64,000 nucleotides of DNA from Marsupella aquatica (GCA_973895155.1 OZ316894.1:13308828-13372827); one strand, 5' to 3'; positions 1 to 42,800 are shown, numbered from the stretch's first letter. Numbers and translations are program-made. The notes: a model not told the origin generated them from the sequence alone.

Positions 1-260
1 AAAGGGCCTCCCGCGAGCTGGGAGGATCACGCGAGCGGGGGGGAGTTAAAGGGCCTCCCGCGAGCTGGGAGGATCACGCGAGCGGGGGGGAGTTAAAGGG
101 CCTCCCGCGAGCTGGGAGGATCACGCGAGCGGGGGGGAGTTAAAGGGCCTCCCGCGAGCTGGGAGGATCACGCGAGCGGGGGGGAGTTAAAGGGCCTCCC
201 GCGAGCTGGGAGGATCACGCGAGCGGGGGGGAGTTGAAGGGCCTCCCGCGAGCCGGGAGG
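1..260 (+). repeat. 47-bp GC-rich tandem repeat, about 5.5 copies, truncated by the window start
   Basis: Unit AAAGGGCCTCCCGCGAGCTGGGAGGATCACGCGAGCGGGGGGGAGTT repeats head-to-tail with no spacers. Each unit has an internal CCTCCC...GGGAGG hairpin. Confidence 0.95.
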
Positions 261-684
261 AATGGCCGCGCGCCCTGCATAGGGCCGCGCGCAGGAGGAC
301 GCAAGGGTAAGGCCCGAGAAATGGGCCGGGGCGCATGGCGAAGGCGCCAGGAGTTTTTTCGGTTCTATTTTTTTTTCCTTCCTTTTTCTTTCCCTCTTCC
401 TTTTGCACGACCCTCTCATTGCCGAAAGCAAAAACGGGGTTCTTCTCTCTCTTGCCGGAAGCTCTCTCCAGATTCTAATTATTTTTGAAGCTCTCTCTTT
501 CATGGTGGATTAGTGGGGCTTGCTGGCGTCATTCTTCCAGGCATTAGTGGCGGCCGCACGGAGTAGTGACGGGAAATTGAGAGAATTTAAGTGATCGGGC
601 TACGGGGGCTGTTTCGGGCCAGGGAATTGACATTGCCACGGGTGACGGGATTGGTGATTGAGAAATTGATTTCGGGATGCATGG

Positions 685-2541
685 ATGCTAGATCAACCAG
701 AGTTTAGTGCGTCACGCATTCGGAGATACAAGGCTGCTTACCGTGACTACGTGGAGACTCGGATTACACGGGAAAGGGAAGAGAGAGAAGTTATGATGAG
801 CACGGGATTGGCAGCGGGTTCCTCACCGGTGGGTAGGAAGATTTTTCGTCGAATTTATCCCAAGACCTCCACCAAGGTGATGGAGGATTGTCGGAACATT
901 TTCCAAGCCACCGGGCTTACAGAATTCATGAAGGTGGAGATTACCATCCCTTCAGGGAAGAGCTGGGACATTGAGGCCGGGATGGAGTTCCGAACGGAGG
1001 GAATCTACTTTGAATGTCTCAAACGTGTAGTGCCCCATGTGGAGTTGGCTAAGCTATTGTTTCTTGAGAATCAGAAAATCTCATTCACACCTCGGAATAT
1101 CAGGGGAGAACTCACGTTGAAAATGGTGGCCACTTGGGTGACCAATCCTACCTCCACCACCGCCATCCCTCTTTCTGCTGTCAAGGATGTTGAGTATAAG
1201 GGCTTCCTGGCCAAGGTGCATCAACGGGTTCTTGGCAACGTGCAATCCGGAGTGCTGAATGAGGAGCATTTCGTGGTAGCTATGGACATCAAGAACTACC
1301 CAGCCCATGTGTACGGATGGTGGTGCTACGGATTGAAGAAGCTATTGGCCGCTGAGCCCGGGAGTGTGAAACCAGGTGGGGCTGTACATTTGATGGGGTC
1401 ATTTGTATTGGCCAGGGCAGAAGGGTTGATTGGTTCTCCGGGGCATGAAGACACGGGATCATCTCTCACCACGGAGATCCGGAGTATTGCCACTACCGTT
1501 TTAGGGAAGCTCACGGAGGAATCATTGTCTGCTGGTGGGGAGGATAATAGAGAAGAAGAGAACCAGGAGGATGATTGCACATTGGAGTGGCTTGAATCAC
1601 TCGTGGGAGATCCGAAACAGCCTCTGGAATACAACATTCCGGATGTTTACTTGGCAGAGCTACGGGATTTCAGAGAGGGAGTCCACGAGGGACTCAAGCT
1701 AGTCCACGCATTGAGGGAGTCTCTCAAGCACGCCACAGTCAAAGTAGAGACGTTAGAGCAGAGCATCCTGTCACTGAAGGAGGTGATCAAGACCAAGGAG
1801 CAGACCATTCATGAGAAGGTCAGGCACATCAATGCAGCTCACGTAGAGATCACCAACTTGAAGGGAGCTTTGTCCACCAAGGCCAAGGAAGCAGAAGAAG
1901 TAGGAGCGTTGAGGCAAGCATTGGCCAAAGAGAAGCAAAATTCTGGAGAAGTGATGGAGTGGAGGAACCAGGTGGGAGCACTACGGAGTCAGGTGGCAGC
2001 CTTTGAGACACGAGCGAAGAGAAGTGAGGCCCTGAGTCTAGGGAAACGGAAGAGTCCCGGCACACCTGGCTCCACACTTTCCCCGGATGTGATCTCCCAA
2101 GCTATCGAGATGGTGGTGAAGGAGGTTAGTGGGAAGTATGGACCCTTGTTGGATGGAGCCAAGAAGAGTCAGGAGAAGAGTAAGAGCTTGGAGAAGAAGC
2201 TCCGGGAGGTACGGAAATCGTTACGGGAGGCTCAGGTCAGTACGGGGATGCCACCCAGGTCTGTCACCCCCGGGACTCCCATGGCCACGGGGCAAGTTCT
2301 ACCGTTGGAGTTGCGGTCCGGAGAAGAGGCTACCCTCTGGAAGGACACAATTGGTGAGGGGTACATCAAGGCGTGGCAGGCCTTGGCTGCTTTGAGGAAG
2401 CGCGGGAGCAGCAGCACTAAGAGTACTCCGTCGAAGAAGAAGAAAAGTACGGTGGCACTCACTCCCGTGAGTGATGAGGAGGAGGACCACTCACGGGGCA
2501 CAAGTCCGGGCACCGAGAGCGAAGAAGAAGAGGAGGATTAG
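685..2541 (+). CDS. 618-aa TE-associated accessory protein: globular N-terminal region, acidic linker, long coiled coil, basic/acidic tail
   Basis: Intact intronless ORF with a heptad-rich C-terminal half. Degraded look-alikes at 21213-23933, 28420-28760 and 52009-52170. Confidence 0.65.
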   Translation: MLDQPEFSASRIRRYKAAYRDYVETRITREREEREVMMSTGLAAGSSPVGRKIFRRIYPKTSTKVMEDCRNIFQATGLTEFMKVEITIPSGKSWDIEAGMEFRTEGIYFECLKRVVPHVELAKLLFLENQKISFTPRNIRGELTLKMVATWVTNPTSTTAIPLSAVKDVEYKGFLAKVHQRVLGNVQSGVLNEEHFVVAMDIKNYPAHVYGWWCYGLKKLLAAEPGSVKPGGAVHLMGSFVLARAEGLIGSPGHEDTGSSLTTEIRSIATTVLGKLTEESLSAGGEDNREEENQEDDCTLEWLESLVGDPKQPLEYNIPDVYLAELRDFREGVHEGLKLVHALRESLKHATVKVETLEQSILSLKEVIKTKEQTIHEKVRHINAAHVEITNLKGALSTKAKEAEEVGALRQALAKEKQNSGEVMEWRNQVGALRSQVAAFETRAKRSEALSLGKRKSPGTPGSTLSPDVISQAIEMVVKEVSGKYGPLLDGAKKSQEKSKSLEKKLREVRKSLREAQVSTGMPPRSVTPGTPMATGQVLPLELRSGEEATLWKDTIGEGYIKAWQALAALRKRGSSSTKSTPSKKKKSTVALTPVSDEEEDHSRGTSPGTESEEEEED

Positions 2542-4400
2542 ATAGGCGTACGGACGTGGGTGTACGGCCTCCAGATTTCCAACATTTTAGTGGGGGGTCA
2601 CTCATGGGCTTGTTGGGATGAGCTCGCGGAGCTGATTCCAACAAGAGGCGGCGCTCCTCAAACGGAGCCAGGATGAGCAAGTTATGGCCTGGAGAACTTA
2701 TGTTTTTGCGGTACGGAAACGGCCATAACTCAGGCGTCTGAAGTCCGTTGAGGGAGCGACTTAGTGATTCGGAAGCAGGAAAAGAAGAGCTATCCAGGGG
2801 TGAGCTCAGGTGTGCACTTGGAAGGGCACCTAGTTTCGGCCATTTTGGGGTGCCTCTCACTTTCAGGGTTCACGTGTACTGTTGGGGCGCCGTCGAAGGC
2901 ACCGTCGGCCCCCTTGTTTTGGGTTTAGGGTTTTAGCAGCATGTGTGTGCCGCATGCTCCTCTTCAGTTTAAGGATTTCTCTTAGTGCAAGGTTTTAGCG
3001 GCGCCGCTAGGGTAGCCGCCACCGTTGTGACCCTGTGAGGGGTGCTTTGGTGTGATTTTTCAGTATTTAGGGGGATAGCCCCGAAGTAGTTAGGGGGACT
3101 CAGTGTGAAGTTAGCAAGGAGGGATAGAGTGGAGCCTGAGGAGTTTGAAAGCGTGTTCAGAGTAGTGAGGGGGAGCCATACTCATTGTCCGGAGAGGCAG
3201 GAGTTGAGTAGACGGCAGGAGGCCGGGTTACTCATGCAATGTGTATCGTTTTTCCCAAGAGATATGGATCTGTACATTTGACTTGATGGGCTTTTGTTGT
3301 GTGTTCCTTCTCCCTTTTTCGCTTTCCGAATTGTGTTCTCCCGTTCTATGATTTGAAGAAACTTGCTTGGTTTGAGTCGGCCTTGTGAGTAGGGGTGGTG
3401 ACAGCACTCTTTGGGTGACTCCGAGTGAAGGTGTAGTGGGGTAGTCGGCAGGACTTGATCAAAAGCTGTGGGGTGAGGGTAGTCGGTAGACTTGATCAAA
3501 ACCTACATTTCCGGGAGCGGAAACCAAAATACTCATCCTGGTGTGAAAAGAATCCAAATAGCGTCCCTCCACGACCCCGTAATACGATACCAACGGTTTA
3601 AGCGAAGAAAAGTGCGGTTTGCACGTATTAACCGTTGGAGAGGCAAGTGACACCTACAACTAATTCAAACATCAAAACTTGAATACTTAGGTTTGACCCA
3701 TGAAATGTTTGAAATTCAATTGATGTGAGTGGTACAAGTCTTCTCCATTAGATTCTTTCTCCTAAGCCCAATTTGGCACAAGAAAAAGACCCATACTTGG
3801 TCAAAAATCAATGTTGAAGAAAAGACACAAGCATTTTCTTGTGAGTCCAAATGTAGGGAGCTCCCTCATAACATGGGAGAAACCAAAGGGTTTTCTCCTA
3901 AGTTGAGAAATCTATTCCTATCTAAAAGGAATTCTAGACTCTAAGAGACAAGGTAAAAGGTAAGACGCTTACAAATCTAAATCTGAGACTCCATAAGTGA
4001 CAAGTGATGTCATTCTAAATCTGATCCTAATTAACTAAAATAAAGCTCAAGTAAGAGGTAAAACGATTTATGAGTCAAGGGCCAAAACTATGTAGTCTTT
4101 GTTCCGTCAAAGTTGTTGCCGAAAGTCTAAACCGATTCTGTAGTGTTCAAGCGATTGTTTGTCCGAAGCGATTCTTCCTTCCAAACTCAAACTTCTTAAC
4201 TTTCTTCCATAACGTTCCTTTGAGGCTTAAAATGGGTTAAAGGGTGACGGATAGACCAAAAGAAGCTTCAAGTAAGGTTAAAATGTTTGAAAATCTGCCA
4301 TTTCCACTCCAATGCTTATTTTTGCCATTCCACAGGGGTATTGAAATCGACATCTTCTCCATCGCCCGAAATGTCACTTCCAGACAGATTAACAACAGGA

Positions 4401-7157
4401 TTAACTAGGCGTGGGGCCAGGGATAGCATCAAATGTCGTGCGATTAAGATTCTTCCTTTTCATCGATCTAGTATTGGGCGAGGTGACAAGGATTTTATCA
4501 TCCCTATGGGAGTCTTGTGGCGAGATATTCCCAGATGCATGTCCCTTCCTCTTCAAAGATTTGGTGACAACATCTCCATTGAGAGGTGCACGTCTCTCCA
4601 AGTCAAACTCGACAGCGTTGGACAGTAGCATATTCATTGCATCTTCATACAACTTGGGGGAGCCTGCCTGGTCTGCTGATCAGAAAGCGAGTTCCCAAAT
4701 CGTGGGACCTTTTCCTCTATGCAACCCTTTCCGATACGCAGTGTAAGCAGCAACCTGAGAAATAGCTCAATTTTGGTCCATTTCACATGCCTCAAAGAGG
4801 CCAACCTTTTTCTTCATTACCCATGCTTTCATACCTGCGTGCACGGACTCTGATCCTGTACAATTAGGAATCTTAGCCCCTTCTTCGACACTCTTGTTAT
4901 GCAATTACATAGAATAAATTGTCTGTTACGCAACAAGAAAACACTAGCGTCGGGCGCTAGAGAAGTGGAGTCGGTACCTAGAAGTCAAAACTGGCAATGT
5001 ACATTAAGGGACAACTTATTGCATCCTATTGTGTTATCTGACAGTTCGAATAAATGATAGTGCCAGGCGCTAGTATTAAAGGATGCTATGGTATTGTAAT
5101 ATTTGAAGTTTACACTATGGATACAATCATTTTGTAATGAGAATATAGCAGAGCAATACCTAAAGAGCAGAAAGCAAAGTAAAACAACTTACCAAGCGAA
5201 TAAAATTTCCCCATTGCCTCCACCTGACGACCCACCATGAAATCCAACTCTGGAGCATCCGGAGCTTCCCGGGGACACAATTACCGGACTGCCACCACAA
5301 ATCAATCTCCCTTGAAAGTCTGTAAGCCTCTACAAACGTGGGGGCATTTTGCATCTTATCCCAAAGCCTGCGATGCTCTGCTTGACTCTCTTGAATCACT
5401 CCTTCAACTGAATGGCGATGGAAGGCTTGGTAGAAATGGAATGCGTCAGTTCACTCACGCTTTGGGTTTGGATGCCCTCCAAAAAAGACATTTCGGACTG
5501 CCAGCCAACCAGCTTGAGCATTGTCCGCCATGAATCCATGAATAATCGGATTTTCTAATCCATTCTCCTTGGACACCTCAATCATTAGTCTCCAAGCCTT
5601 CTCGAACAACTCTGTATCCTCTGCTTTTAGTTCGCAGGTAAATAAGGTACACAGAGCGCGATAGTTGTGATCGTAAATATGCGCACTAAAAGTAACCCAG
5701 TCTTTTGTGAGTCGTTTCATCACATCAAAACTTACCCAAGCACCTTCGAGACTTCCACCAGGTTGCATTTGTCTCAAAAGATCGACGCCTGATCCATGGC
5801 CGATCGAAGTCATCTTGAATATGTGAGGACGGTCTTCTTGAGATCCTTGACCTGGTAGGAGGTACCTTTGTAGGAAAGGCATGTTGATATTTCTTTGATA
5901 CCGAACAAGAAAATCTAGTTCACCTCGACCTTTCTGGTCCTGTCTAACACTACGAAAGAGGGACGCAAACTTCTGGGGTGTGGAAACTACCATGAGCGAC
6001 TCAAATATCTCTGTTTCTTCAATATCTTGAATATCTTCCATACTTTCACACAAGGACTTTACAAAGGACCCTGTCGCAACATTTTTTACACCAGCAGGGG
6101 TGAAAATTGGATTTCCTTCTAATTTCTTTTTGATAACCTCCTCAACAATCTTCTCTTTGCTCTGAGAAAACACCTTTCTTGAAGGATGGTTGTGGATCCC
6201 CATATGAATTGTCAAGCGGGACATGTAAGTACAGGTTTCTGAGTCAACTAGAACCTGAGGGGAGGTGTTTACAAAAGACAGCAAACAGGAAACAAGATTT
6301 AATAACAGAAACTAGTAACAGGAAAAAAAACTGGTAATAGGAAAATGGGTGAAAAAAAAAATTGATTTTTTTTTTTTGAGAAAAAAATAAATAAATTTTT
6401 CGGTCGACCAGTTTTTTTTGCTAGCGCCCAAATCTAACCAAAAATGTTGCATTGTTAATTTTTTTTGGAAATAACATGTTTTAGGAGACATTTTTAAATT
6501 GTCATTTTTCCTGGTAACAATGATTTTTTCCTGGTAATAGCACATTAAAAACAGGAAAAAAATTCCTGTTTACCTGTTTCCTGTCTCTGTCGCTATACCC
6601 AACCTTAAGATTTCACTGGAACCAGTTGACTTGAGAATGGTATCCATTGCACTTCTCCGATACACAATGGAATTTTTGGTAAAAATTGCTGTAACCTCCT
6701 GTTTAACAACTGTGTGAGGGGGTTTAGCACTAGACTCAGGCAAACCAGAAGGTCCATCATCGTCGCTATCTGAAAGCAAGACAACATCAACAAAGGGTTT
6801 GGATGAAGATGGGAGATCGGATGCTACTGGTTTTCGAATGACAATAGAATACCGAATTCCTGCATTCAGGTGCCAAAAATGAATCTCGTCATCAACATCA
6901 AAAGAAGGAGTGAAATTAGACGCTTCATCTCCATTTCCCTCCTCCAAAATGTCCTCAATGTCGTTCAAATCCAAACCAAAGCGCCCACAGAGATAATTCT
7001 CACTAACTTGCTTGTATACGTCATTGGCCGACAATGGAATGGATACAAGGTCACCGGTAGACGGACGCGTCAGAACGATTGACCTCGACATTGTAAGATC
7101 ATCCAACCCAAAAACACTCAGTTCACGATAATGAATGACGTCTTCGAATGTACACAA
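4401..7157 (-). pseudogene. MULE-type DDE transposase, spliced and disrupted
   Basis: WRKY/FAR1-like Zn-finger end IHMGIHNHP. Candidate catalytic triad AWVSFD (~5727), HGFMADNAQAGW (~5525) and GSESVHAG (~4848), with DAFHF at the CxxH-like position. GT donor at 5192. Several in-frame TGA/TAG stops and a MITE insertion at 6261-6600. Confidence 0.8.
6261..6600. mobile_element. Non-autonomous MULE-type MITE inserted in the transposase
   Basis: Asymmetric ends GGAGGTGTTTACAAAAGACAGCAAACAGG and CCTGTTTCCTGTCTCTGTCGCTATACCC. Flanks AACCTGAGG (6252-6260) and AACCTTAAG (6601-6609) match 7/9 as a TSD. Degenerate palindrome at ~6422. Confidence 0.75.
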
Positions 7158-8107
7158 TGGTATTCATAGTGAATAATCCGTTTGTCAGAGCCGTTAGAAT
7201 ACGACAGAATCACTACCGGTCAAAAGCACATCTGACACAATAAATGTTTTTTGTCGTTATGTCAACGACATTTACACTATTGAGCCTAAGATGTCCATTT
7301 CCAAACAGCATAATCATGTTTATTAAATCACCATAATTGAGTAGCGTCGGGCGCTACTCAAACCCACACCCTAAATTGTGGTATAAAACTGGAATATTTT
7401 ATCCGGGGTTTCAGAATAAATCCTAAATTTTTGCAGCTATTTTCCAAATATTATCTAAAATTTTACCAAAATATGGATATTTAATATTAGCGCCGGGCGC
7501 TAATCTGAAACGGTAATCATGACATTTATTTAAGGACAAATATTCAAAAATTGAATTCATTTTGTTTTTTATTTTATACTTCAGGGTCATTGTTGTCCTG
7601 ACTAAGGGAAAATTTAGGGTTTAAATAGTGAGCGTTTTGGGTAGCGCCAGGCGCTACTATTGACCAATATCAGATTTCAACTAGGAATATAGATTAAAAT
7701 CACCAAATTATTCTTTAACCGTCATATTCAACGGTAACGTTAGGTCGTGTAACATTGAAGATATGCCAACGGTATTCCAACAACTAATCCGGAGTTGACA
7801 AGTGGCGCTCAGGAGAATGTCGTAAATAGATATCAATGTAGCGAGGGGATAGTTTAGAGATGATACTCTCCCCACCTTCCTTGTCCGCTGTATTTAGGTT
7901 CCGTTTTGGAGGTTCTTTGTGCAAGAATTCTCTAGAAGAAGTACGGTACGAATGAGGTACTCATCACAATCGTGAAGCATTTTGTGTATGTGAAACATGG
8001 ACCCTCTCCCCACCACCTAGCATGGGTATAGTGCTAATGGGCAGAGAGAGCAGATCTATTCCCAGACATCCCAGTGCTCATTTTCTGGATCTGTTTACAG
8101 TCGTCAA

Positions 8108-11100
8108 GTGACACGGTCTACAGCATCCCAAACTCCTGCAACAATCGCGGTAGTCACATTTCCGAAGAGCAAGAGAGCGAAGATGGACGATCTCGACACA
8201 TACGCTGTCGAAGATCAAGGAGAAATGTCGCTGACAATGTCCGACGTTATCTCCAAGCACGTTATAGTGTTTGGCAAGGATTTTTTAGGGCACGACAAAG
8301 ACCCCCCAAGGATTCCAATGTGTCACTTGGTTCACATGGAAGTTGTCCGCACCTTACAGAAGGGAAGTCCTTCAATTGAAAAGTTGAAGGACTCTTTTCG
8401 TAGCATAGGATATAACTCAAAAATTGGAATGTTGTTCTATGTCCAGCCGGCAGATTGGAATGGGAATGTCCAGACATGTACTCCGGAAATTCGAGCGACC
8501 TGGGACCTGATGTGGGTGGGCGAGAAAGAGAAGTTTGAAGCTGAATGTGTGGCCGATCCAGACTTCATGGTGTTACAAGATAAGATGTTTTATGTTTTTG
8601 ACGGTAACCATCAACTTTACGCATGGTCGATCGTTACGAAAGAAAATCCCAAAGATAGCAAGTATCACCCGCGTGTGCAATGTACTATTTTCAAGGGTGA
8701 AAAGGGATCTTTGATTGAGATTGAGGCGACTATGCATACTGTGAACCAGTAAGTCTCTCTTTGAATTTCACCTATCCTTCTTTTTCATAGTATTTTTTTT
8801 ACTAGCGCCTGGCGCTATTGACTGACAAATTCTTCTGTAGACTTGGACAGGCCGTGGTGGAACCTTCCTGGATACTTCATGCCGACCGAATTAAGAGGAT
8901 TTTTTCCAACAATCTAGAATACTATAAATCAATCATTGATGGGGCAAACTTCAAGAAGTTTGGGCAGGTGATGCAGAAGACTCGAAAAGGATCGTGGTAT
9001 TCCAAGAAAATGCCTCAAGAAGCACTTCTGTATATCTTATGCGAGAATAAGATTAAATCCTATTCTCGCCAATTCAAGATGGACTTGGAGTCGGCAACCG
9101 CTCAGGGAAATCCTTGGTCTCAGGAAAAGACATCCAAACGACATGCGGTCATGATGAAAGAAGCAACGAAGGATTGGGCGATCAAGGTCTCAAAGATCAC
9201 TCCCTTGTTGAGTCCAGAGTTTGAAGACTTCATGACAACTTGTGCTGAGATGTATCCGATGACAGAGGTGAACAAACGCAAGAAGAAACCGGATGCGGTT
9301 GTCTGTACCATGGATCGTGCCAGGTTATTTACAGTAGTCTTCGCCCTCAACCCCAAATTGAGGAGCACTTTGTTAGTAGCGCATTGCACGCCAGAGCTCA
9401 GGAAGTAGTTCTTTCACCCACAAAGCGTTAGCGATGACCCTGTGAAGCAGTGGTGCCAAACATGGCAAACTTGGAATAGCATGGAGGGAATTGCTATTGG
9501 TATGCTGCAGACTGCCCTCCAGCAAATCAGTGAAATAATTCCTTCCAATCGATTGGAGGAATGGAAGTGTGAGTCTTATGACTCACTCGTTGAAATAGTG
9601 TGCAATGATTTCAAAAAATTTGGGGATGCAGTGAAAGGTAAGTTTTTCAATACGATGTGGATGTCCAAGTACCCGGACAAGGAAGACTACACACTCAAGA
9701 ATCAAAAGCGAGCAAAATGATATGTCTATTGTTTCTTCATGCACGTGGAGATTGTGAAGCCTGACTATTTTTGGGCTTACCCAGCTGCTTTCCAGAATTG
9801 GGTCATCTGCGCAGATGGAGACATTTTGGCCAAACTGTATTCGATGTATCCCGCAGAGGGTATACTTCCACCAAGGAAATTGTCAGAGTGGGAGAGAATT
9901 CACTGCCCTTGGTATCTTGACACCGACAAATGGGATTCTCCTTTTGACGACACTGAGAAGGATGCTTTCCATAAACTGTCCAAATCCCAAGTTCCGAGAC
10001 AATTTGTCTCCGACATGAAGCAAGGAATTGAGGGGGACATCAACTCGTCGACGACTGAGTTGCAAAAAAAATGCGAAACCACTGTGGTTCATGTTGATCG
10101 AAGCCGAAAACCAAGAGCCAAAGCCAAGGCGAATGCCCCTATGGCAAGTGCTAGTGCCAAGTCTGGGAAAAATGTAAGCTACACCTCCTTCTTCCAACTT
10201 CCTTCTTTGGTAGCGCCTGGCGCTATCATGTGTCGTGAGTTTAATATGTTTTATTTCCCAAAATTAATGTGAGTGTTTGGTCAGCGCCTGGCGCTAACAC
10301 TCTTTATGTGCTTGACACCATTTTTTGGTAGGTGGGCAAAAATCTGATACTGCCACGGATGACACAAAAGTCGATGCAACACCAGAAGTCTCTGAGGCCA
10401 ACATTGGTGCCAATCCAGACCCCATCACCCCAGTTGAGAAGGGGAAGGTTATAGTTCCTATGGATGCTACAAGCACAAAGAAGAAGAAGAAAAGGACCAT
10501 CGATGCCTGGGAATCGTCACGAGATAATGCTTTTGGGGCCGGTATCCAACGGGATGTGGGGAATTTCAAGACCAAACTCGGAAGACACTGTATGGTCGAA
10601 TCAAGCTTGGCAGAATTCATTGATAGTAAATTTAGTAAGGAAGAGAAGCCAGATTGGGTCGCAGACGCTGAGAAGTGGGGTAAGGATTTGATCAAATTGG
10701 GGTGTAGAGATAAAGGAGTCATTCGAGGTGGGAAGGAACGATCATTTGGGGTGAATGCGGGTTTCATCTATCTCCCAACTGGTTTGAAACCCAATTGTTG
10801 ACCGTCGAGTCCCGAAATGGAATGTCACAGATCACATAGCAGCCAAATGGTTTTTTTGGGCGATGGATCCTTTCCTTTTGGATGACGGCATGCTCCCTAT
10901 CTTATACTTGGATGACCACGATCAGATTTCCCAGGTCATTTCTGCATGTCAGCAATCCAAGAAGTTCATGTGCATCAATACGCACAATGTTTTCATGTCT
11001 GTCCCAATGTACAGATCCAAGATAGATGTCCAGGTAAATGTTCTCTCTGAGTATAGCTATACTAGCGCCCGACGCTAATCTTTCTTTCTTAGGAAGTCTT

Positions 11101-11722
11101 CTCTCATGAATAAGAGATTTTTAAAATCCAGTTGGTTTGTCAACTTTTGTAGGTCTTCACTCTTAGACAAGATATATTTTGTCGAGTTTCTTTTAAAGGA
11201 AAGGTCCCAAAGGATCCAAGATTCAAGCCGTTATCTAGCGCTAAAGATCCTTCAATCTCGAACCTTATTGGGCTACAATCTTTGAAGGAAGATCATTGTC
11301 CTGAACTCCATTTTACTGGGAATTCCCGACTACCGGTTGGTTTTATGCAAACTGTCCTTAAACTCTTTACGACACCTAAGGATATTGTAATTGATTGGAC
11401 CGTCGGCTCAGGTAGTACGTTCATTGCTGGGGATTACTCGGGCCGTTTTGTCATCGGGTTAGAAAATCGTTGGGAGTTTGTTGAGACCGCTTCGAGGATT
11501 TTGTTGGACCTCATTTCTCCCAAACCTTTGGAGACACAACCTCCCCCTCCTCAAATAACTGGACAAAAAAAGAAAGATAGACTTAGATCTGTCCTCAACT
11601 TTGACTCGGACGAAGATGATGGGACGCCAAAAGATGATGTTCCTAAGGATGTCAATGACGGTGGGAAAGAGGAAACCCGACATGATGGGTCAACGGAGGA
11701 CAGCGAAGAGTCTTTGAAGTAA
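8108..11722 (+). pseudogene. ParB/Srx-like domain fused to a beta-class (N4C/N6A) DNA methyltransferase-like domain; multi-exon, disrupted
   Basis: N-terminal VRTLQKGSPSIEKLKDSFRSIGY...FYVFDGNHQLYAW resembles ParB (DGxxR). C-terminal FIYLPTG...FLLDDGMLPIL...RLPVGFMQTVLKLFTTPKDIVIDWTVGSGSTFIAGDYSGRFVIGLEN follows MTase motif order IV-VI-X-I-II. Frame-consistent GT-AG introns at 8749-8840 and 11034-11152; a probable intron at 10174-10331 does not keep frame. In-frame stops at 9406 and 9718, frameshift at ~10793. Confidence 0.8.
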
Positions 11723-11843
11723 TTTTTGTCTCTCGTAAGCTCCTTTATCCTTTCAATTGTTGGCTAACCTTCAATTCCACCGGTTCTATCGGTTAAGTAC
11801 TTACTTCCTCTTTCTCTTCCGCTTCTCTTTTGAGCAGGTCAGA

Positions 11844-12146
11844 ATGGAACCAAAGAAAATGGTTCAACTCCGGAGGAAAGTGGCTCAAAATGTAATCATC
11901 ACTCCCGAGAAGCCGTTTGTGTTGCCATCATATGCTGAGAACGTCGCGAGGAAGGTAGAGAAATTTAGAACGCTTTGCTGGGAAACAAAAGGACTTAGGC
12001 TTCTTAGGGGAGTAGACAGGAAGTTCATGAGGAACCCCTACGTAGATGATGTTTCTAGAAGCAAGTATATTGATGATGAGGCAGAGTCGACCGACAGATC
12101 TCATAGCTCCCAGAATGAGAGCTCAGAATCTGACACTGAAGGGTAG
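11844..12146 (+). CDS. Small 100-aa ORF of unknown function inside the MULE (separate gene or extra exon)
   Basis: Open frame MEPKKMVQLRRK...SDTEG, preceded by a pyrimidine tract and CAG acceptor at ~11837. Confidence 0.35.
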   Translation: MEPKKMVQLRRKVAQNVIITPEKPFVLPSYAENVARKVEKFRTLCWETKGLRLLRGVDRKFMRNPYVDDVSRSKYIDDEAESTDRSHSSQNESSESDTEG

Positions 12147-13241
12147 CAATTTTCTCCTCTATCAGGTCAAACTTCCTCCCAACTGTACGTGTATGCCCTT
12201 GGTTTTTGTTAGCGCCGGGCGCTATTGAATTTATTAAATCGGAATTGAGTTTGAGGGAGGTTTCCCCTTCCATTCAATGGTTAATGGGGTCTTTCGTAAC
12301 GTCCTTTGTGTGGGTTCCTCTCCTTGTTTAACTAGCACCCGACGCTCCCCAAAAAATACGTTGGAAGTTTCCGTTTGAATTTTTTTGTTTCCGCCCTAGT
12401 GTCATTTGGCTTTCAGTCGGCGACTGGTACCAAGAAGAGGACCAATAACGGGAAATCCAAGTCCCTTATAAACATACTATTGTTTCTTTCAAAGTCCATT
12501 GCTCTTGTTTTTCTCCTTCTCGATTCCATGGAAGTCCAGTGTGTCGACGGCCCACGAGAGCATATGTCAACTTCCGATTAGATGGTTTCCGCCAAGATCC
12601 AGATCGTCAGGACGCTGGGATTGACGATGATTGTCACTCTTTGAGCTAGGACATTGTACGAGGAAGCACCCACCAGGAGTATTAGCGCCTGGCGCTAGGT
12701 ACAATTGTACTGGCATCTTTAGTGTTCCTATGTAGCAATATTTGTACATCGAGGACAATATGTTTCACTTAAATAAAAAAGCTCGAGTTTCTTTTCTTTC
12801 AATTTCCCGTTTGAAGTTCTGACTCAGATACCTTGGTTAAGTCCTGCTTTTGTGCTTTGATATTGAACCTAGACTGTTAGAAATGTTTGGTTTCTATTTG
12901 GCTCTCAGCCTGAACATCAATCCTACGTTCTCATGATTTTCTCCACAAAGCATTTGAAGCGCCCGGCTCTAGTATTCGGCATGTTTGGGCGATTAATGTT
13001 TCATTATTTTGGGTTTGAACGCCCGGCGCTAGTATTCGGCATGATGCGTTTGTGTTTGTTTTGCCTATAAACTCCCGGTGCTAGTATTCAGCATCGCATA
13101 ATTATCAGTATTTTAGGAACGGTTTTTTAAAAATTTGCCACAATACCAGGAGAAATGTGCACCCAAAACAGGAAATTTTGCTGTTACCAGTTCCTGTTAT
13201 AGTTTGTTGTTTGCTGTTTACTGCCTTTTGTAAACACCTCC

Positions 13242-13954
13242 TAAAGCTGACCTTCCCGTCAAACTTCTCCACCTCAAACTTTGGCGCCACAAGCTTTCGT
13301 GAAGTCATTGATGCTGACACACACAATCACCAAAAATGAAAGTTGGCAAAAGTGGAACTATAATGCACCATCGCGTAGCCTGCAAGGTACACTACCAATA
13401 TCTTAAAATGATTTGGCAAAAAACTGCCTCAAAAAAGCTTATCTAGAAATATTTTTGTTTTCCTCTCCTCAAAGCACCCGCAGAACGGTGTTTGGTAAGT
13501 CACTCCTTCTGAACGCAAAACCTCCAGCGCACAACGACCAGTAACATGATCACAAAAATTGTTGAAAACAATCTGATCCGTCACCATGATTCAACACACG
13601 AACGTTCTCACCACTGCCCAGGCAACCGAACGTTGAACACAAAGCTTTGATACCACTTGTAGGAAAACCGATAGCTCCAGACTAGACAGCAATGCAGAAC
13701 ATGAGAGCACTCAATCTCACACTACACCAACAAGACACCACAATCATGGAGAAACTCTTGAAGGATCCATAGCTGATGAGATCAAACATGTGAAGAATGA
13801 GGGAGAGAATGCTCTTTCTCCAACCTATACCCCCTAAGGGGAACTAAGATGTGTGGGCCTAAATAAGTGGATCTTATCCTAAACTAACCAAGGGTCAATT
13901 AACCCTAGTAAGTCCAAACTAACTATAGTCAAGAACTCAAGTCAATTCCTAACA
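13242..13954 (-). mobile_element. Ty1/Copia 5-prime end: LTR (13658-13954), tRNA-iMet PBS, start of gag
   Basis: TG...CA-bounded LTR; PBS TGGTATCAAAGC (13644-13655, minus). gag N-terminus KFEVEKFDGKVSF is cut by the MULE end. Confidence 0.8.
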
Positions 13955-14900
13955 ATATTTATAGATGACTACTTGAGATATGTATGACCTAGCTAGCTGT
14001 GGCGGGCTAGGGACGGAGTCTGGTTTTTATTTTCGCGATTTAATCGGATTTTCGGGCTTACGACCGCAATTATTTCGCTGGCCAATTGAGGCGCTTGTAA
14101 TTTATTTCCTAGAGAAGAAGTCTGATGTTTTTGTCATTTTTCAAAAGTGAAAAGGTTGAGAATCAGACAATAAGCACGATGAAGTGCTTGGATGCAAGGG
14201 TGAGTACACAAGTTCTGACATTTTTGAAAGGTATTGTGAAGAATAGGAAATTACTCGTCATCTCACCATGATTATACTCCACAATAGAACGGTGTTGTTG
14301 AGCGGCTCAATCAAACACTATTGGAACGTGCTAGGTGTATGATGGGGCAATCCAATTTACCATATATTTTTTGGGCTGAAGCTATGAACACTGTAGCTTA
14401 TTTGGTAAACCTTTCTCCTTCTAGTGCCATTGATTACATGACGTTGTTTGAATGGAGGTATGAACGGCAAGCGGATTACCAACGGTTGGTAGTCTTTGGA
14501 TGTGATCTTTATCCTCTCACACCTAAGGAGCAGCGGTCCAAGCTCAAAGCAACGTCCAAGAAATGCGTCTTTCTTGGATACCAAAGTGGTGTGAAGGCTT
14601 ATTGGTTGTGGGATCCAAACACCGGTAAGATTGTTGTCAATAGGGATGTTTTCTTTAATGAGGATACCAGAACACTGAAGGAGGAGAAGAATTCTCAAGC
14701 TTCCCATATTGACATGGCAAAATCTTCCTTAGTTTGGTGGGAGGTTGAATTGGATGATGAGGCACAAGGAGATGCACAACAAGAAGCAGACCGTTGTCAT
14801 GCCAAAACATTTCAGCCCGGGGGTGGTCTTTTATAGTGAGTGATGGGTAGGTAGTCGCCATCCAGTCACGACTATGCGGATGCAAACAAGTTGTTGGGGA
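13955..14900 (+). pseudogene. Copia integrase fragment
   Basis: IFIDDYLRYV, NGVVERLNQTLLERARCM, FWAEAMNTVAYLVN, RSKL..KKCVFLGY, VNRDVFFNE; contains stops and frameshifts. Confidence 0.9.
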
Positions 14901-16932: not shown

Positions 16933-18235
16933 GAACAGAGTATCGCTGCCGCATGTGTCGAGAGGATACACTGCTGCATGCGTAGAGCTCTTGCTTAGTA
17001 ACGTTAAGCCTACACGAATCGTTGCATAGAGGCCAAAAGTGCTCGTGCTTCTTACTTGTTCTTAGTACCACTAAGACTCTAACAAGGATACTTGAATAGA
17101 GGCCAAAATTTGCTTCTAGAGGATTAGTTTAGTGACACCAATTAAAATGGGCGGTTTCATTTAACATTGCTAGTATTGCTAGTATGTGGTGCGGCAGTAC
17201 TGCTCTCGTGGGTCTCCAAAGTTCAATTAGTTGTCCACAAAATTCAATTAGTCATCTTTACCTGACTGGCCTTGGATCGCTCGTACATATTTGTCACTTA
17301 GCTTCACTTTTGTCACTACGGTATTTAGTGACAAAAGTGAAGCCCCTTTCAGTTATAGGATTGCCATCAGAAACCTCCTTGCCCTAAACAAAAAAAGTAG
17401 TAAGTCCGTAACTATGGAAATGCCCTTACTTAATTGACTACCAATCTCCTATGACTGCACTTGCGTATTGGTGTGGCCTCTCCAAAGTACAAAAATGTGG
17501 TGAGAGCAGCTTTTCATTCATAAAAACACTTCATTGCTGTTAGTGAGCATCTTGCTCTTACGTAAAAGTGGCGGTGACCGTTCAGTGTCACCAGCCCTGC
17601 TCTCAATTTGGACGTACACGAATTTGTGAAAGTGGACAATTACTACACTAGACTCACGCCCTAGTCTACGTTGTCTTGACTCATTAGAGAACAAGGCAGA
17701 TCAGGGGTCTACTTTCCTGGCCCAGTCCGTGAACATAAATAATTAAAACCAGAAAGTTTTCAGCTGCTGTACGTGACCCGTGTGGAAACACCTCATCCCT
17801 CAATCTTGCGTTATGTATCAAAACCTCGTAACAGTGAGAATCTCCAAACCAGTCAATAGCCCCAGAAGAGTCCACAGGGGAATCCGGCCTAAAACAAGGC
17901 TAGACGCTCACTACAATCTATCTCAAGACGATCAATCCCAAACGTCTTTAAAACATCTTGGCCGGTAATAGACGCAATGAAACTTAGTGGAAAAATCCCC
18001 TCAGGCAGACAGGAAAGAGGTAGATTGCTCAAAAACAAGACGCTAGCAGTTCCCTTTTCTGGACTGAAGACCCACAGGATTCCCTTCTCGCCTAACCAAA
18101 ATCGATAGGTGAAAGGGGAAATTAAAAGACAAGCAGGCTCACTTGATGGCAAATCTGGTTGGGAGGGAGTTAGATAATACTCTTATCAAGTAGGAAACAT
18201 GTCATTATGCACCACAATTACTCCATACAGTAGAT

Positions 18236-19421
<1,186 letters not shown>

Positions 19422-24240: not shown

Positions 24241-24899
24241 CTCATTATTTAGTAACTTAGGCACGACACTTGACGTAGTTGTTATGCAAACCCCTCTTAC
24301 TAATGGTACCATTATGGTCATCCCAATTGTTTTAGGATAATAAATGTGCTCTATTGCAAACAAAAAAATATTTGGGGCCTGCACAATGTACTCTCTAGCC
24401 ATGAAATCATAAGGGAGGTTGTAGAAGGCCCGTGGCAACAATGTAGTACTGCTACTTGTAGGAGCACCAACCACAGGTTGAGCAGGGCATAACCACAGTG
24501 CCAGGAAACATGAAAAAGGAAACAACAAACAACAAACAGTAAAAAGCAAATGGATGAGAATTTTTGAGAATTTTTGGGGGATTTTTATTTTTTATTTTTA
24601 AAATTTTTTTGTTTGTATTTTTTACATTTCTTTACTAGCACCCAAAGCTAGCAATAGTAACGCCTAGCGCTAGCCAAAAATGATTGTTTTTAAAAATATT
24701 TTGAAAATTTTGAGTTTTAATGAGACCTTTTTGATATTTCATTTTTGCTCGTAATAGTAAATTTTTCCTCATAACTGGAAATAATTTTCCTGTTTCCTGA
24801 CACGGTGTAAAGCCTCGGTTGAGCATGACCTGCTGGTTGTATTGATTTGCCTTGGAGGGATGCCAATTGAGCTCGGACTGCATCCAACTCGTTGGTCAA
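24240..24899 (-). pseudogene. gag-like retroelement ORF fragment split by the MITE at 24485-24816
   Basis: The frame ...QPAGHAQP resumes as AQPVVGAPTSSS... across the insertion; the TSD duplicates AQP. Confidence 0.4.
24485..24816. mobile_element. Non-autonomous MULE-type MITE with a perfect 9-bp TSD
   Basis: TSD GGTTGAGCA at 24476-24484 and 24817-24825. Ends GGGCATAACCACAGTGCCAGGAAAC and GTTTCCTGACACGGTGTAAAGCCTC resemble those of 6261-6600. Palindrome variants at 24636 and 24658. Confidence 0.88.
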
Positions 24900-32546: not shown

Positions 32547-34270
32547 CACTAGTAGAAACCGGGGTGTTTTATGACTAAGTTTTACGACTGCCCATGACTC
32601 CAACTATAGCTCCTTGATGGCAAACCGCAGGCTCTTCCCGGTTCTTCAACCAAAAACTCACCCAAAACACACCCTTGCAATGTCCTGAGTTAGTTGCAAC
32701 AACTCCAATCTAGCTTGCAGCTGCCAATCCGTTCCCTCCGCCCTCCTTGCCAATGCCAACTCCCAATAGCAATGAGGCTTGTTCAGCTGACCTCCTTTGT
32801 AGGAGCTCCCAACTCCCAAAGTGAAACCGTCACTACTTGCAGCTACGAAAAACGGTCCCTGGACCTTGTCGCTGCCAATGTGCGTCGTGCGCTCAGTTCT
32901 CCTCCCCACCAAGAACTGAAGAAGGATCGGCTTCAACTATAACTTCAACTCCAATGCCCAAGAAGATTGATGAGCTCCTTAGTCAAAGACGCAGCTGGAA
33001 GGGTATGCACGCACTTACAGTTCACTAAGCTCCAATGCCCGGGACGATTGAGGAGCTGCTCCTGAGACTGGTCGTAGCTTGAACGGTAAGACCACAGGAA
33101 TCCCGCGTACGTTGTTCGAGCTCACAATACGCTTGGAAGAGAGGATAGTAGTAGACTTCACCCTAAGCAATGAGATTAGACAGCATCGGGCTTTGATCCT
33201 AAGTCTTTACGCCTCCCACACAGGTCCCGCATTAGTAAAGCTTGTGCAGTGCCTTCCGCAGCAGTAGCAAAACTCCCGACTGACTCCCTCCTTCCGCAGC
33301 AGTAGTGATCACCTCCCTTGAAGCAGCTGTGAATGCACTCTACTTGCAATGGAAGACTCCAATATGTCCATCACGCAGCGATGGAAGCCACAACAATGGG
33401 AGCACGCATGGACGGGACCCACACCACCACAATGAGCTCGTAAACATCGAGGGAAAGTGAAGGAAATACGCACCCTAGCCAGCCGCAAGGATGCACTTTT
33501 GCCTTGGTGTCTGCAAACTCTCCCGGGACCCGATCGAAGGAAGCTCAGACATGTGTGACTAAACGGGATGTGCGACTAAACGGGACTCGGGAACGGAAAA
33601 GTTTGACCTGATGGTGGCGATCAACTCCATCCAATGGTGCGTGTCCTCCGATTAAACCCCCTCCCCCTTGAGATCGATATAACCCCCCCACCCTTGTGAT
33701 ATAACCCCCCTAAACCCCCTTTAGGTGTCTTGCTAAAACCCCCCCTAAACTTTGGCAGGAAGGGTTACATGCATGTGGATGAGTTAGGCCTAAACTGCAC
33801 TTCATGTAACACAAAACCACAAAAAAGCCTCCCTAGCAAACCCTTATGCCCCTGCATATAGTTCAGTCAATGGTTGTGTAAAGCGTAATCCCATGGCTCA
33901 GAATGTGTATGGGATCGGGTAAATTTCCTTTAACCAGGCATATGGCACCTACATTATTTAAAAAAGTGTTCAATGGCCACAATGAAAATTAATGGACAAG
34001 TCAATTTTGTTGACTAAATTGGACTTGGCTTACTATTGGCCATTGTCTTATGTTGACTAAGTATGACTATGTAGTCATACTTGAATGACTCATTCAATAG
34101 ATCATGATTTTTAAAAAGTTCAATGGTCTTAAGTTGTCATAAACATGACTACTGATGACTATCGAGTCTTATGGCGTCTCAAAAATAAGACTGATGTTCA
34201 AAGGTTGCACTTGCGTGGTCACCCCAGTCACAAGTGGTCTGGTCACGAAATGCCCCGGTTTCTACTAGTG
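32547..34270. mobile_element. Non-autonomous CACTA (En/Spm) element, 1724 bp
   Basis: Perfect 18-bp TIR CACTAGTAGAAACCGGGG / CCCCGGTTTCTACTAGTG and 3-bp TSD CCA (32544-32546, 34271-34273). Confidence 0.95.
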
Positions 34271-36513: not shown

Positions 36514-37465
36514 TAGCCCCATGCCTGTGCGTTGCACAAAAGATGTTGAGGCGAGGAAAATATGCTATGATGAAAAAAGATGTCGATGAGAAAAAAGGAA
36601 GTTGAGGAGGAAAAAAGAAGTTGAGGTGAAAAAAGATGGTGAGGTGAGGAAAGGGTGTTGAGATGAAAAAATATATCGATGAGAGAAAAAGAAGTCGAGG
36701 TGAAGAAAAGTTGTTGGGGAGAGAAATGATGGCAAAGTGAGAAAAAGATGTAAAAATGAGGAAAATATGTTGAGGAAAGAAATGTTGAACATGAGGGAAA
36801 GATGTTGCAGTGAGATAAAGATGTCAAGGGGAGAAAATATGTCAAGTGAGGAAAAAATGTCATGGTGAGGTAAAGATGTGAATGTGAGAAAAATGGCAAA
36901 ATGAGAAAAAGATGTTGAAAAGCAATACATATGTAAAGATTAGAAAAATATCTGCAAGTGAAAAAAGATGCTAAGGAGACATATAAAAGAGCTTTGCCAT
37001 GTAGTTGTTGGTATTGGTGCAATTGTGGCCATACAATTGTTGTGGTTGTGTTCTGTAACTCGTGTTGCACATAAAAATTGGAGAAGTGAGATAACGACCA
37101 CTGCATCATAGAATCTAACCAAGTGACAGGAAAAATGTGTTTTTTAATTAAACTTTTCAATATGTAGAGAAATAAGCAATTTTCTGTGCTTTATTTACAT
37201 TCCATTTAAAAAAATAGAAATTTTATCCCCATCTTTCTAAATATAAATACAGTTGATTATTTAAAGTTAAGTTATTATCTTGGGTAGGTGCAGGCAGGCT
37301 AAATTGTAGTTAGGGTAAACATTTATTTGAAATGGTGTGTATGGATAGATCTGAAAGTGAAAAAAACATTATTTTGATAAAGGTCTAAGATTGATTCACA
37401 TTTTTTTATGAGTTTGGAAAAGAACTATTTCATCTTCTTGGTAGAATAGGGTATTATATGGGAGA
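36514..37465 (-). mobile_element. Non-autonomous Helitron with an internal degenerate purine-rich minisatellite
   Basis: GTGCGTTGCAC hairpin near the 3-prime end, AAAAGATGTTGAGGTGAG-type repeats, homology to 49969-51431. Confidence 0.65.
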
Positions 37466-39844: not shown

Positions 39845-42800
39845 ATGAAGGTGAAAATTATTTCTCGGTCTGAGGATGACTTCACCAGGGAACGGCGTCA
39901 AGACTTGCAGGTGCGTTCTTACGCTCGGTTTAGGTCTAGCTTGGACCATGATTCTCCGCACATTAAAATTCGAATTCTTCATGTCTCTGTATTGTTTCCT
40001 CGATCGGTCGATGTATAGACTATCTTTGGAAAATGGCTTTCTGCTCGTGGAGCTCAGGTCTTTCAGTGAACTCGCAGAAAGTTTTTCGTAACCTTGATCC
40101 CCGCCTACATCCACAAGAACGAGCTCATGAATATACACGGGCTTTGATTGCTGCAAAGCTGGAAAAGGTAATGTTCCTACTGTGCGTCACTTATCTCAGA
40201 TTGAGCAACCGTAGGGTTGTCGTGGTAATCCTTGGTCGCTATTTTCTCATTTCCTTTCCAATTTCAGCAGAGGGATATAATTCAATGGTCACTCTCTAAT
40301 CAGGTCTTTTCCAAACCTTTTGTTGGAGCAATGAGTGGGCACAGAGATGCCGTTTCTTGCATGTGCAAAAACCCCCGAGTCTTGAACTGCTTGGTTTCCG
40401 GTTCGATGGATGGAGGTATGGTCCCATTGTCTGTCTTAAGCAGTCAATTTCCTCTTTATCGAAAAGGTAATCGACAATTTCCGAGATTGGGGATAGTTTG
40501 ACGATTGAGTAGAACCTATGACTTCAGTCTCAACGGCATGATGTATTGTAGTGACTATTCGATGGTACTTCTTTGAAGCTCTTCTCGTTAGCTATCCTTG
40601 GACATGTTGAGAGGGGCTGTTTGTGAAACCTTTGTTAGGATAATCCATTACAGCTTCATTATACTTCAGTTGACGTAAGATTTGGTCACATCTCGATTTT
40701 CCCTCATACTTTGTCTCGAACCATCTCACCTTTTTTTTCATGTATAACTGCAGACATTCGGCTTTGGGATGTTACTCACAGGTTGTTTCGTTCGTTGACT
40801 TTTTTGTCGACCTTATTCATGTCTTCTATTTCCAGTTTTTAGTTTGTTGGATTTAGGGTGACTGATATAGGTTTTGAGGTATATTTCGTTCCCGAATATT
40901 AACAAGCCGGGAGACTTACGTCGTGTGTGAGTCTGTGCTGGACGTGCATGCTGATTTGCGATATGTTCCTGCAGGGAAATGTTGACTCAGTTTCCTGGCC
41001 ACACAGGGGCTGTGCGAGGCTTGGCCGTTTCATCAGATGGAAGGAATCTCCTTTCTTGCGGGGATGATTGCACGTATGCTGTCCATCTTTGATATCTCCG
41101 TTGTTTTCAGGTGTTTGCCTTTTACTCAGTTTGAACCGCGGGCAAATAGTTTATTCCACGGTAGTATTTGATCTCTCAGACCTCTGAGTGTCTTCAATTC
41201 AGGGTGAGGTTGTGGGAGCTTCCAGGACCTCGTGGTCCCTCGCGGGAGGATGGAAAGGAGGAAGAGGTATCTTTTCCAACGAGACACTTTGTCTAGATGA
41301 GCCATCTGTGCAAGAAATGTAGAGATTTCCACTGCCTATACCATCCCTTTTGACACTAACAGGGTTTGTAATGCAGCCAGTTGCGATTTTCCAAGGGAAG
41401 AATGCTTTCAGGTAACTTCTTGGACTGTCGGTCGTTCGTATGCGATGTGTTTTGTTGGATGACATGAGTCAGCTTGTATATCGCAAGCAGGTTTGGAATA
41501 GTCTTGCCGTCATCCAGATATCTGCTGTCACTTACCACTGAATATTCTGCCCAGGGCGATTGATCACCACTGGAACAGTAGCCAATTTGCGACAGGTGGT
41601 GCCCAGGTTGATATCTGGGATCAGAATCGGTTGGTACTTTCTGTACTTTTTGTTGAGAGTTTACTTGACCTGTTTGGCCTCAGTGATGGTTTCTGTTCCG
41701 CTTTAATAATGAGTGTTCTGAGAGCTTGGCGTATGCTAAGGTCGGAGCCTGTGAGCACCTTTTCCTGGGGAGCAGACACAGTTGTCTCGGTGCGCTTCAA
41801 TCCTTCTGAGCCTGACATTCTTGCCTCTACCGCAAGGTTCGTGGTTTGTTATCAGCTGTTGCAAACTCAGTCCTTGATTCTTGTGCTTCTACCCGTGTAC
41901 CACGTTTCACTGTCTCCTTCCGAAATCGATCTAGTTCTGTCGCTCTAGCGTTACCCTGTATTTTCCAACCGAATTCATGTATGTGTGCAGTGATCGCAGT
42001 ATTGCACTTTATGATTTGCGGATGAGTACTCCGCTAAGGAAGCTGATTATGCAGGTATGTTTCCCTAGCATTGTTTGCATCTTTATATGTGGAAAGAGCA
42101 GTTTCATGTTTATCTCAGTGGTCCGATCATTCTTTTATGAATTTCGTTTCGATAAATTTGAGCGCTAGTCAGGTTTGTTGTAGAACATTTAATTAATGGC
42201 ACTTGAGAAAGGACAACAAATTCGATCGACGTTCAGGATGGATTATTACAAGTTCAACTCTAAATCGGAGTCCATCATGAAGGTGCTTGCCAAGCATTTC
42301 CTTGGAAATGCGTTTACTGACCCAATACTATTTGAGACTTGCAGACTAGAGCGAATGCTGTTGCCTGGAACCCGCGTGAAGCGTTTAATTTTACAGTGGT
42401 ATGGCTTTTATTTACAACTCGTTTGGTATAGCTAATTACGCAGACTTGATATTTCCCTTGTCTAGACTTGTTGTCTCCGCATTGCTGTAACAGTTGTCGG
42501 AGATTTCCAATGTAGATGCAGACTCACTCGCATTGAATGTTTGGGTGGATACGTGTGACTCAGGCTAATGAAGATTGCACCTGTTACAGTTATGACTTGC
42601 GCAAACTGAAGAGTGCAACTTGCATCCACAAGGATCATGTGTCCGCTGTGTAAGCCTCTTGAAGTGTGAAAGCACTGTGTTAAGGTTGCTTTTGACCAAG
42701 ATTGAAATTCATCTGACAAATTGGGCTGTTCTTGAATTGCAGGATGGATCTTGATTACTCACCAACTGGAAAAGAATTCGTGACAGGCTCATATGATAGA

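Follow-up and report, generated by a model that had tools for sequence, protein, structure and literature searches.

The window analysed here, a whole stretch of 64,000 nt from Marsupella aquatica (GCA_973895155.1 OZ316894.1:13308828-13372827), contains a decayed copy of a Mutator-like cut-and-paste transposon in which a transposase gene lies head-to-head with a second gene, encoding a probable ParB/Srx-like domain fused to a domain resembling the beta-class DNA amino-methyltransferases (MTases) of bacteria and phages. The fusion-gene model has four exons and three introns, all bounded by GT..AG, and a length of 1056 residues, with X placed at each break of the frame (Table 1). An earlier sequence-only reading of this DNA had described the fusion with two introns. 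Every peptide that it quoted is present in the sequence, and its junctions at 8748/8841 and 11033/11153 are GT..AG, preserve the frame and lie ungapped in the alignment to a gene model of Riccia sorocarpa (P0157), but the middle intron had been overlooked. Its start at 8108 was the GTG of a bacterial-style open reading frame (ORF) call and has been replaced by the ATG at 8183, which agrees with the starts of homologues P0002 and P0005, a longer start being conceivable (P0001). Exact look-up of ORFs from the window matched none of eight. The Riccia protein P0157 (R1sor_027256, KAL3677308.1, 1207 residues) aligned with model residues 10-1006 at 27% identity (E 4e-80), with 26-36% identity in each segment and 30% between Riccia and the exon 2 middle region across model residues 190-560. 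Because P0157 matches the whole model, the ParB-like and MTase parts are read as a single gene, as had been proposed. It is also a eukaryotic gene and no contaminant, with introns conserved in homologues and flanks made up of plant repeats and genes.

The claim that the frame is preserved held across the two junctions and failed for the window copy as a whole, which is broken by two stops and two frameshifts. Other copies were represented by contigs of four public runs, and their differences from the window were drawn from the best-supported 40 of 67 variant rows. In these copies the frame is kept open at 9406 in three of four runs and at 10167 and 10791 in all four, the difference at 10791 being seen again in three of four runs in a separate comparison. 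The stop at 9718 aligns with an arginine in Riccia, and its position falls outside the 40 best-supported of the 67 rows. Since other copies differ at its breaks in frame-keeping ways, the window copy is a pseudogene within a family that has open frames. Across 3500-14500 all 30 bins were covered in each of the four runs by contigs of mixed likeness (85-100%); the element is multicopy and its copies have diverged. Differences among the other copies were synonymous in 14 of 23 cases against 26% expected (p 4e-4), and those private to the window in 1 of 12, in a non-random sample of 35 exonic rows among the best-supported 40 of 67. The MTase-like frame is under purifying selection.

Immediately past exon 4 lies a 135-codon open frame (11739-12146, +), whose tail, NPYVDD, is similar to the end of Riccia P0021. 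A GT..AG intron is possible at about 11719-11838, and other copies differ by one base at 11862. The fusion gene may possess a fifth exon in the 11739-12146 region.

Exon 4 passes the Pfam N6_N4_Mtase cut-off (35.6 vs 26.7 bits, E 1.2e-8), bearing out the C-terminal amino-MTase of the sequence-only reading. It matches phage DNA methylases, the best of them 26-36% identical over the C-terminal half, as well as NCBIfam CcrM and PRK13699 (both below their cut-offs) and the structures of DpnA and M.MboII in PDB. The family profile matched all eight phage beta-class MTases compared, chiefly in the C-terminal half (hhalign 97.4%). Grouping with RNA or protein methyltransferases was checked, and the Pfam, PHROG, NCBIfam and PDB matches were DNA amino-MTases. 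These resemblances make it likely that the MTase domain came from prokaryotes.

Motifs I and II, the latter acidic, are retained. The pattern expected at motif IV, [DNSH][PLI]P[YFW], is absent from all three plus-strand frames of the window copy. VNAGFIYLPTG aligns column for column with VDAIICDPPYG, YLPT standing opposite DPPY or DLPY and placing the motif-IV position 168 residues N-terminal of motif I (167-258 in references), which is the permuted order; the assignment is positional, bridged by DLPT and DVPF homologues. A small profile built from just the N-terminal MTase half matched nothing. At this position four Riccia proteins read DLPTG, DMPSG or DMPTG, and two fern proteins read DVPFG, which is near-canonical, and DFPIG; D-x-P-x-G is thereby kept in every Riccia (4/4) and fern (2/2) protein that reaches the region. 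Among the differences listed for other copies none falls at 10757-10791, and one loose contig end reads VYLPT, so the loss of motif IV is a trait of the subfamily and not a product of decay. The rotifer enzyme N4CMT is reported to lose its activity when SPPY is altered at its first and last positions (PMC8885841). An active amino-methylase is not supported, since motif IV is degenerate in the window copy and in Riccia; standard methylase activity is probably absent in the window subfamily.

The N-terminal domain had no match in Pfam, PHROG or NCBIfam, and its assignment to ParB draws on motifs and weak scores. ParB/Srx domains feature a DGxHR-type motif after a hydrophobic strand and a conserved arginine upstream, and the family has both. 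DGNHR occurs in 87 and EGNHR in 18 of 159 proteins (105/159 together), with neither in 32, many of which are fragments; R56, G141, N142 and H143 are at least 90% conserved among 57 sequences. The window copy has Q in place of the last R, and the suggestion that its CAA derives from CGA was borne out, all five close homologues reading DGNHRL. Among language-model look-alikes of exon 1 in the Atlas, clusters of fungal DUF3723 came first (0.96), followed by an unnamed cluster from cnidarians (0.95) and, at 0.91, one with ParB_N annotated on 11% of its members. Weak Pfam matches fell to DUF1015 in 2 of 57 members and to DndB in another count of 2/57, both families being ParB-like. Two predicted structures, made before the deep alignment, were of low confidence (predicted local distance difference test 35 and 41) and gave no Foldseek match. 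A ParB-like identity is probable by motif, the fold not being formally established. Searches of phages, plasmids, viral contigs and the genomes of prokaryotes found no prokaryotic relative of the domain (four phage rows were at chance level); because of this lack of a detected relative, the fusion may have formed in eukaryotes rather than have been imported ready-made from phage.

A search with exon 1 recovered the five close homologues (42-70% identity), all sharing the same intron site. A HMMER profile of the N-terminal domain built from them matched 382 clusters (50% identity clusters) at E <=0.001 and 184 at 1e-10. Ten long matches were looked up and proved to be five Riccia sorocarpa and five Adiantum gene models. 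Word-index searches for longer proteins had returned none with exon 1 or exon 4, and the later HMMER search found such proteins. In a tree of 111 N-terminal domains, made by a quick method with midpoint rooting, without prokaryotic rows and with 99 of 111 rows unnamed, and hence uninformative on the donor, the window fell within a 41-row group with seven labelled Riccia rows (support 96), outside the clade of those seven. We conclude that Mutator-like transposons carry an accessory gene family that is real and probably undescribed, its named members coming from a liverwort and two ferns.

The transposase is interrupted by a stop at 5451-5453 (differing in three of four runs) and has an intron at about 5192-4923. 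Its best Atlas matches are MULE/ZSWIM RNaseH-like proteins (0.93, ten of ten in one clan), and Pfam searches with the broken transposase pieces gave zero matches. Its frame is further split by a miniature inverted-repeat transposable element (MITE) at 6261-6600, which has a second, full-length copy (score 186, against at most 100 after shuffling). Run X3 includes two contigs with 12 other letters in place of the MITE, and these bring the transposase halves into one frame. We had considered 6258-6570 as a transposase intron and rejected it, as the frame misfits and the 12-letter stretch fits. A single element bounded by 6261 and 13241 was likewise discarded, since the flanks differ and 6261-6600 has its full-length second copy. 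The left end of the MITE resembles 13176-13241 over 66 nt (83%), a stretch likely to be the element's right terminal inverted repeat (TIR). No TIR-like sequence was found between the two genes (score 23 vs a shuffled maximum of 28), nor in 11723-13100.

Both genes share a 15-bp palindrome, TAGCGCCNGGCGCTA. At <=2 mismatches it has 14 matches in the window against 0.03 expected, 13 of them within 4945-13031 and the other in the second MITE (24658), the sole match in the window outside the element. At <=3 mismatches the 14 sites within the element all lie outside model exons, 40% of it being non-coding (p about 2.5e-6). Every intron of the fusion gene holds at least one, and the transposase intron holds the palindrome too. 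Because the palindrome lies in introns of both genes, no TIR separates them and the likely TIR follows beyond the fusion gene, the two genes most likely belong to one element; the transposon cargo of the sequence-only reading is supported, and the transposon is Mutator-like. Locus L001, from a metagenome, codes for a transposase 61% identical to this one. The intron is the same and carries three near-identical palindromes (1106-1305) that lack the central base (14 bp) and have complementary flanks over a longer stretch, which suggests subfamily-specific targets. Another locus (L003) was discarded, since it matched a bacterial transketolase by chance over eight residues.

Table 1. Features of the Mutator-like element and related sequences in the window (coordinates from its first nucleotide).
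Feature	Position	Strand	Remarks
Mutator-like transposase gene	4400..7163	-	Head-to-head with fusion gene; 3' limit near 4400 approximate
MITE	6261..6600 (340 bp)	.	Splits transposase frame; imperfect terminal inverted repeats akin to the element's right end
Fusion gene, exon 1	8183..8748	+	ParB/Srx-like (DUF3723-like) domain, probable; DGNHQ in window, DGNHR in family
Intron 1	8749..8840	+	GT..AG; palindrome at 8803; site common to 5/5 close homologues
Exon 2	8841..10173	+	Conserved middle region, fold unassigned; stops 9406, 9718; one-base frame break near 10167
Intron 2	10174..10331	+	GT..AG; palindromes at 10211 and 10282
Exon 3	10332..11033	+	Charged linker leading to N-terminal half of MTase domain; frameshift near 10791
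Motif-IV position in exon 3	about 10771-10785	+	YLPTG
Intron 3	11034..11152	+	GT..AG; palindrome at 11063
Exon 4	11153..11722	+	SAM (S-adenosylmethionine)-binding half of beta-class MTase (DWTVGSGST ... IGLE), then acidic tail
TAGCGCCNGGCGCTA in element, <=3 mismatches	4945, 5058, 7342, 7488, 7642, 8803, 10211, 10282, 11063, 12210, 12333, 12683, 12957, 13017		
Likely right terminal inverted repeat	13176..13241	.	Interrupts Copia gag remnant at about 13243
Second MITE copy, same family	24482..24817	.	Limits approximate; holds palindrome match 24658

The reading that we tentatively favour, with a confidence somewhat short of even, is that this is a decayed Mutator-like copy whose fusion protein likely binds the palindromes and would counter silencing in the manner of VANC, probably with no methylase activity in this subfamily. 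The fusion protein, rather than the transposase, would read the palindromes in the introns and spacers of the element, perhaps loading at them as a dimer, as ParB does at parS. The retained SAM-binding half could then serve in DNA or base binding, and the outcome would be that the element escapes host silencing by 5-methylcytosine, much as VANDAL elements do through VANC. VANC is described as binding short motifs in the non-coding DNA of the element that encodes it, in introns, between genes and at the ends (PMC5735166).

Several observations weigh against this reading. Comparison of the N-terminal domain with a phage ParB family by hhalign gave a probability of 4% (P 0.01), the alignment lying around the DGxHR motif (DGQHR in the phage family), and 0.2% with an earlier six-sequence alignment; a Pfam ParB match was found in 0 of 57 members, and a PDB search of the domain returned no ParB. 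The family need not be inactive, as DVPF survives in one fern protein, and the sample behind the selection test was, as said, non-random. No copy of the TIR was found in 1-6250; the left end of the element is lost, there being no similar terminal sequence in that interval, and the 9-bp target-site duplication of such elements is unreadable because that end is missing. L001 is too short to reveal a fusion gene beside its transposase. The palindrome also occurs in MITEs, which a transposase must recognise, and Mutator transposases are, in the accessible part of one report, sequence-specific activators of their own copies (10.64898/2026.08.24.746577).

The last two points lead to the rival that survives best, possible though rather unlikely, in which the palindromes are transposase-binding sites and the fusion gene is selected cargo independent of them, for example a nucleotide-binding or chromatin factor. 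That the palindrome is common to the MITEs and to L001, where the transposase alone is visible, fits this account, as does the activation of cognate copies by Mutator transposases described in the same source. However, the sites are not clustered at the ends; they are scattered over the spacer and the internal introns of the two genes, the pattern described for VANC targets.

We consider it unlikely that the protein is instead an active amino-MTase with a non-standard active site, writing N4-methylcytosine or N6-methyladenine (4mC/6mA) at the palindromes (core CCNGG or GCGC) to mark self. The retention of motif I and acidic motif II, the purifying selection on the frame and the D-x-P-x-G of the Riccia and fern proteins, one of them DVPF, would all suit such an enzyme, whereas in the window subfamily neither the polar first residue nor the aromatic last one of the motif is present, Riccia lacks the aromatic one, and inactive transposon-borne amino-MTase domains exist in DIRS1 elements (PMC4738411). 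It is more doubtful still that nested insertion brought together two genes of different origin, the transposase of one element and a fusion gene that belongs to another element or to the host; the left end is missing and no contig among those listed spans the whole stretch, but the two genes share a palindrome confined to the element region and its MITE with no terminal repeat between them, and the fusion gene is itself found in many diverged copies. TGS1 is unpermuted, and this, together with the permuted order of the domain, its DNA amino-MTase matches, the conserved introns and the plant flanks, has largely refuted an RNA cap or protein methyltransferase or bacterial contamination, which we regard as very improbable even though UniRef automatically names three Riccia members 'Trimethylguanosine synthase'.

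The surroundings of the element are a mixture of repeats and host genes. On its left, a 623-codon open frame (670-2541, +) with a coiled-coil region and no family match is preceded by a 47-bp tandem array (1-261) and followed by a sequence like a long terminal repeat; it is probably an accessory ORF of a retroelement by which the Mutator-like element is truncated on that side. On the right, 13243-14840 contains Copia remnants, namely a gag start (-), truncated where the element ends, and a piece of the integrase region (+; SH3_retrovirus, E 4e-26). Two intron-bearing host genes, encoding the NAC alpha subunit (17900-19300, -) and a WD40 protein that resembles DCAF13/Sof1 (about 39970-42000, +), both fit a land plant. 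A larger duplication at about 34 kb spacing includes a 35-bp array and a pair of degenerate arrays, related to each other, with units of 18-19 bp (36530-36960 and 49990-51000). At 32547-34270 there is a 29-bp inverted repeat beginning CACTA, whose arms are 1.7 kb apart and likely mark a small element of the CACTA type, and 59478-59763 holds two 94-bp copies of tRNA-like look, possibly remnants of short interspersed nuclear elements.

In the family described here, apparently for the first time, plant transposons carry a bacterial-type DNA amino-methylase domain. This adds a second candidate, next to MpDN4MT1, for the origin of 4mC/6mA in plants, and a candidate anti-silencing system beyond VANC of Arabidopsis for which both the protein and a putative target site are in hand; if the protein does target the 15-bp palindrome, it could become a sequence-specific epigenome tool. 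A bolder extension, which we think improbable on present evidence, is that seed-free plants harbour a large Mutator-like family with its own ParB/parS-like system, in which a ParB-domain protein would load at palindromes along the element. Its methylase domain would be active in some lineages, perhaps in the fern DVPF form, placing 4mC or 6mA on the transposon's DNA, and a dead shield elsewhere.

The nearest known relatives are R1sor_027256 of Riccia sorocarpa and its paralogues, of the same family and domain order with 27% identity over about 1000 residues, and L7F22_036188 and L7F22_045304 of Adiantum nelumboides, of the same family, both of which include the motif IV region as well as the ParB-like domain. 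These are uncharacterised automatic gene models, and they differ from the window at motif IV, which reads DLPT, DMPS or DMPT in Riccia and DVPF or DFPI in the ferns vs YLPT here. The Marchantia proteins MpDN4MT1a/b and rotifer N4CMT resemble the fusion protein in placing a permuted bacterial-type amino-MTase domain in a eukaryote, but they are active host genes, horizontally acquired beta-class 4mC methylases with TSPPY or SPPY; as described, they are set apart from a multicopy transposon cargo with a fused ParB-like domain and no (T)SPPY, and the accessible account of MpDN4MT1 gives the TSPPY motif and leaves ParB unmentioned (10.1101/2021.02.12.428880).

Phage loci with ParB and N6/N4 methylases, namely the ParB-terminase loci of PMC4738411 and the adjacent genes in Klebsiella phage VLCpiS13f, likewise set a ParB-type domain before a beta-class MTase, whereas the fusion gene has spliceosomal introns, a linker of about 570 residues and a degenerate motif IV. 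DUF3723 of fungal Starship transposons, the top look-alike of exon 1, is described in the accessible text as a conserved auxiliary gene of these elements (10.1101/2021.12.13.472469); Starships use tyrosine recombinases, and the fusion family has no Pfam DUF3723 match. The amino-MTase domains of DIRS1 (PMC4738411) are also transposon-borne with altered catalytic residues, but belong to another MTase group (PCIF1-derived, unpermuted) within a retroelement polyprotein. In the accessible main text of that survey the ParB link is a helix-turn-helix on group-2 enzymes of chlorophytes and chytrids, and no ParB-MTase clade of plant transposons was found there, although its supplement may list more. 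The literature search, outside which most subscription papers lay, found no account of a ParB-MTase fusion in plant transposons.

VANDAL elements are Mutator-like, and the closest parallel in organisation is theirs. Like the window element, they combine an accessory gene in a transposon with a short motif piled up in non-coding DNA (PMC5735166, in the part available). No VANC-type Pfam family was detected, at the level of Pfam only, on the window pieces or on 30 long homologues, and the fusion protein, with its ParB-like domain and MTase fold, is of a different kind. The targets differ as well, VANC recognising a 9-base motif in tandem repeats, whereas the window element carries a dispersed 15-bp palindrome.

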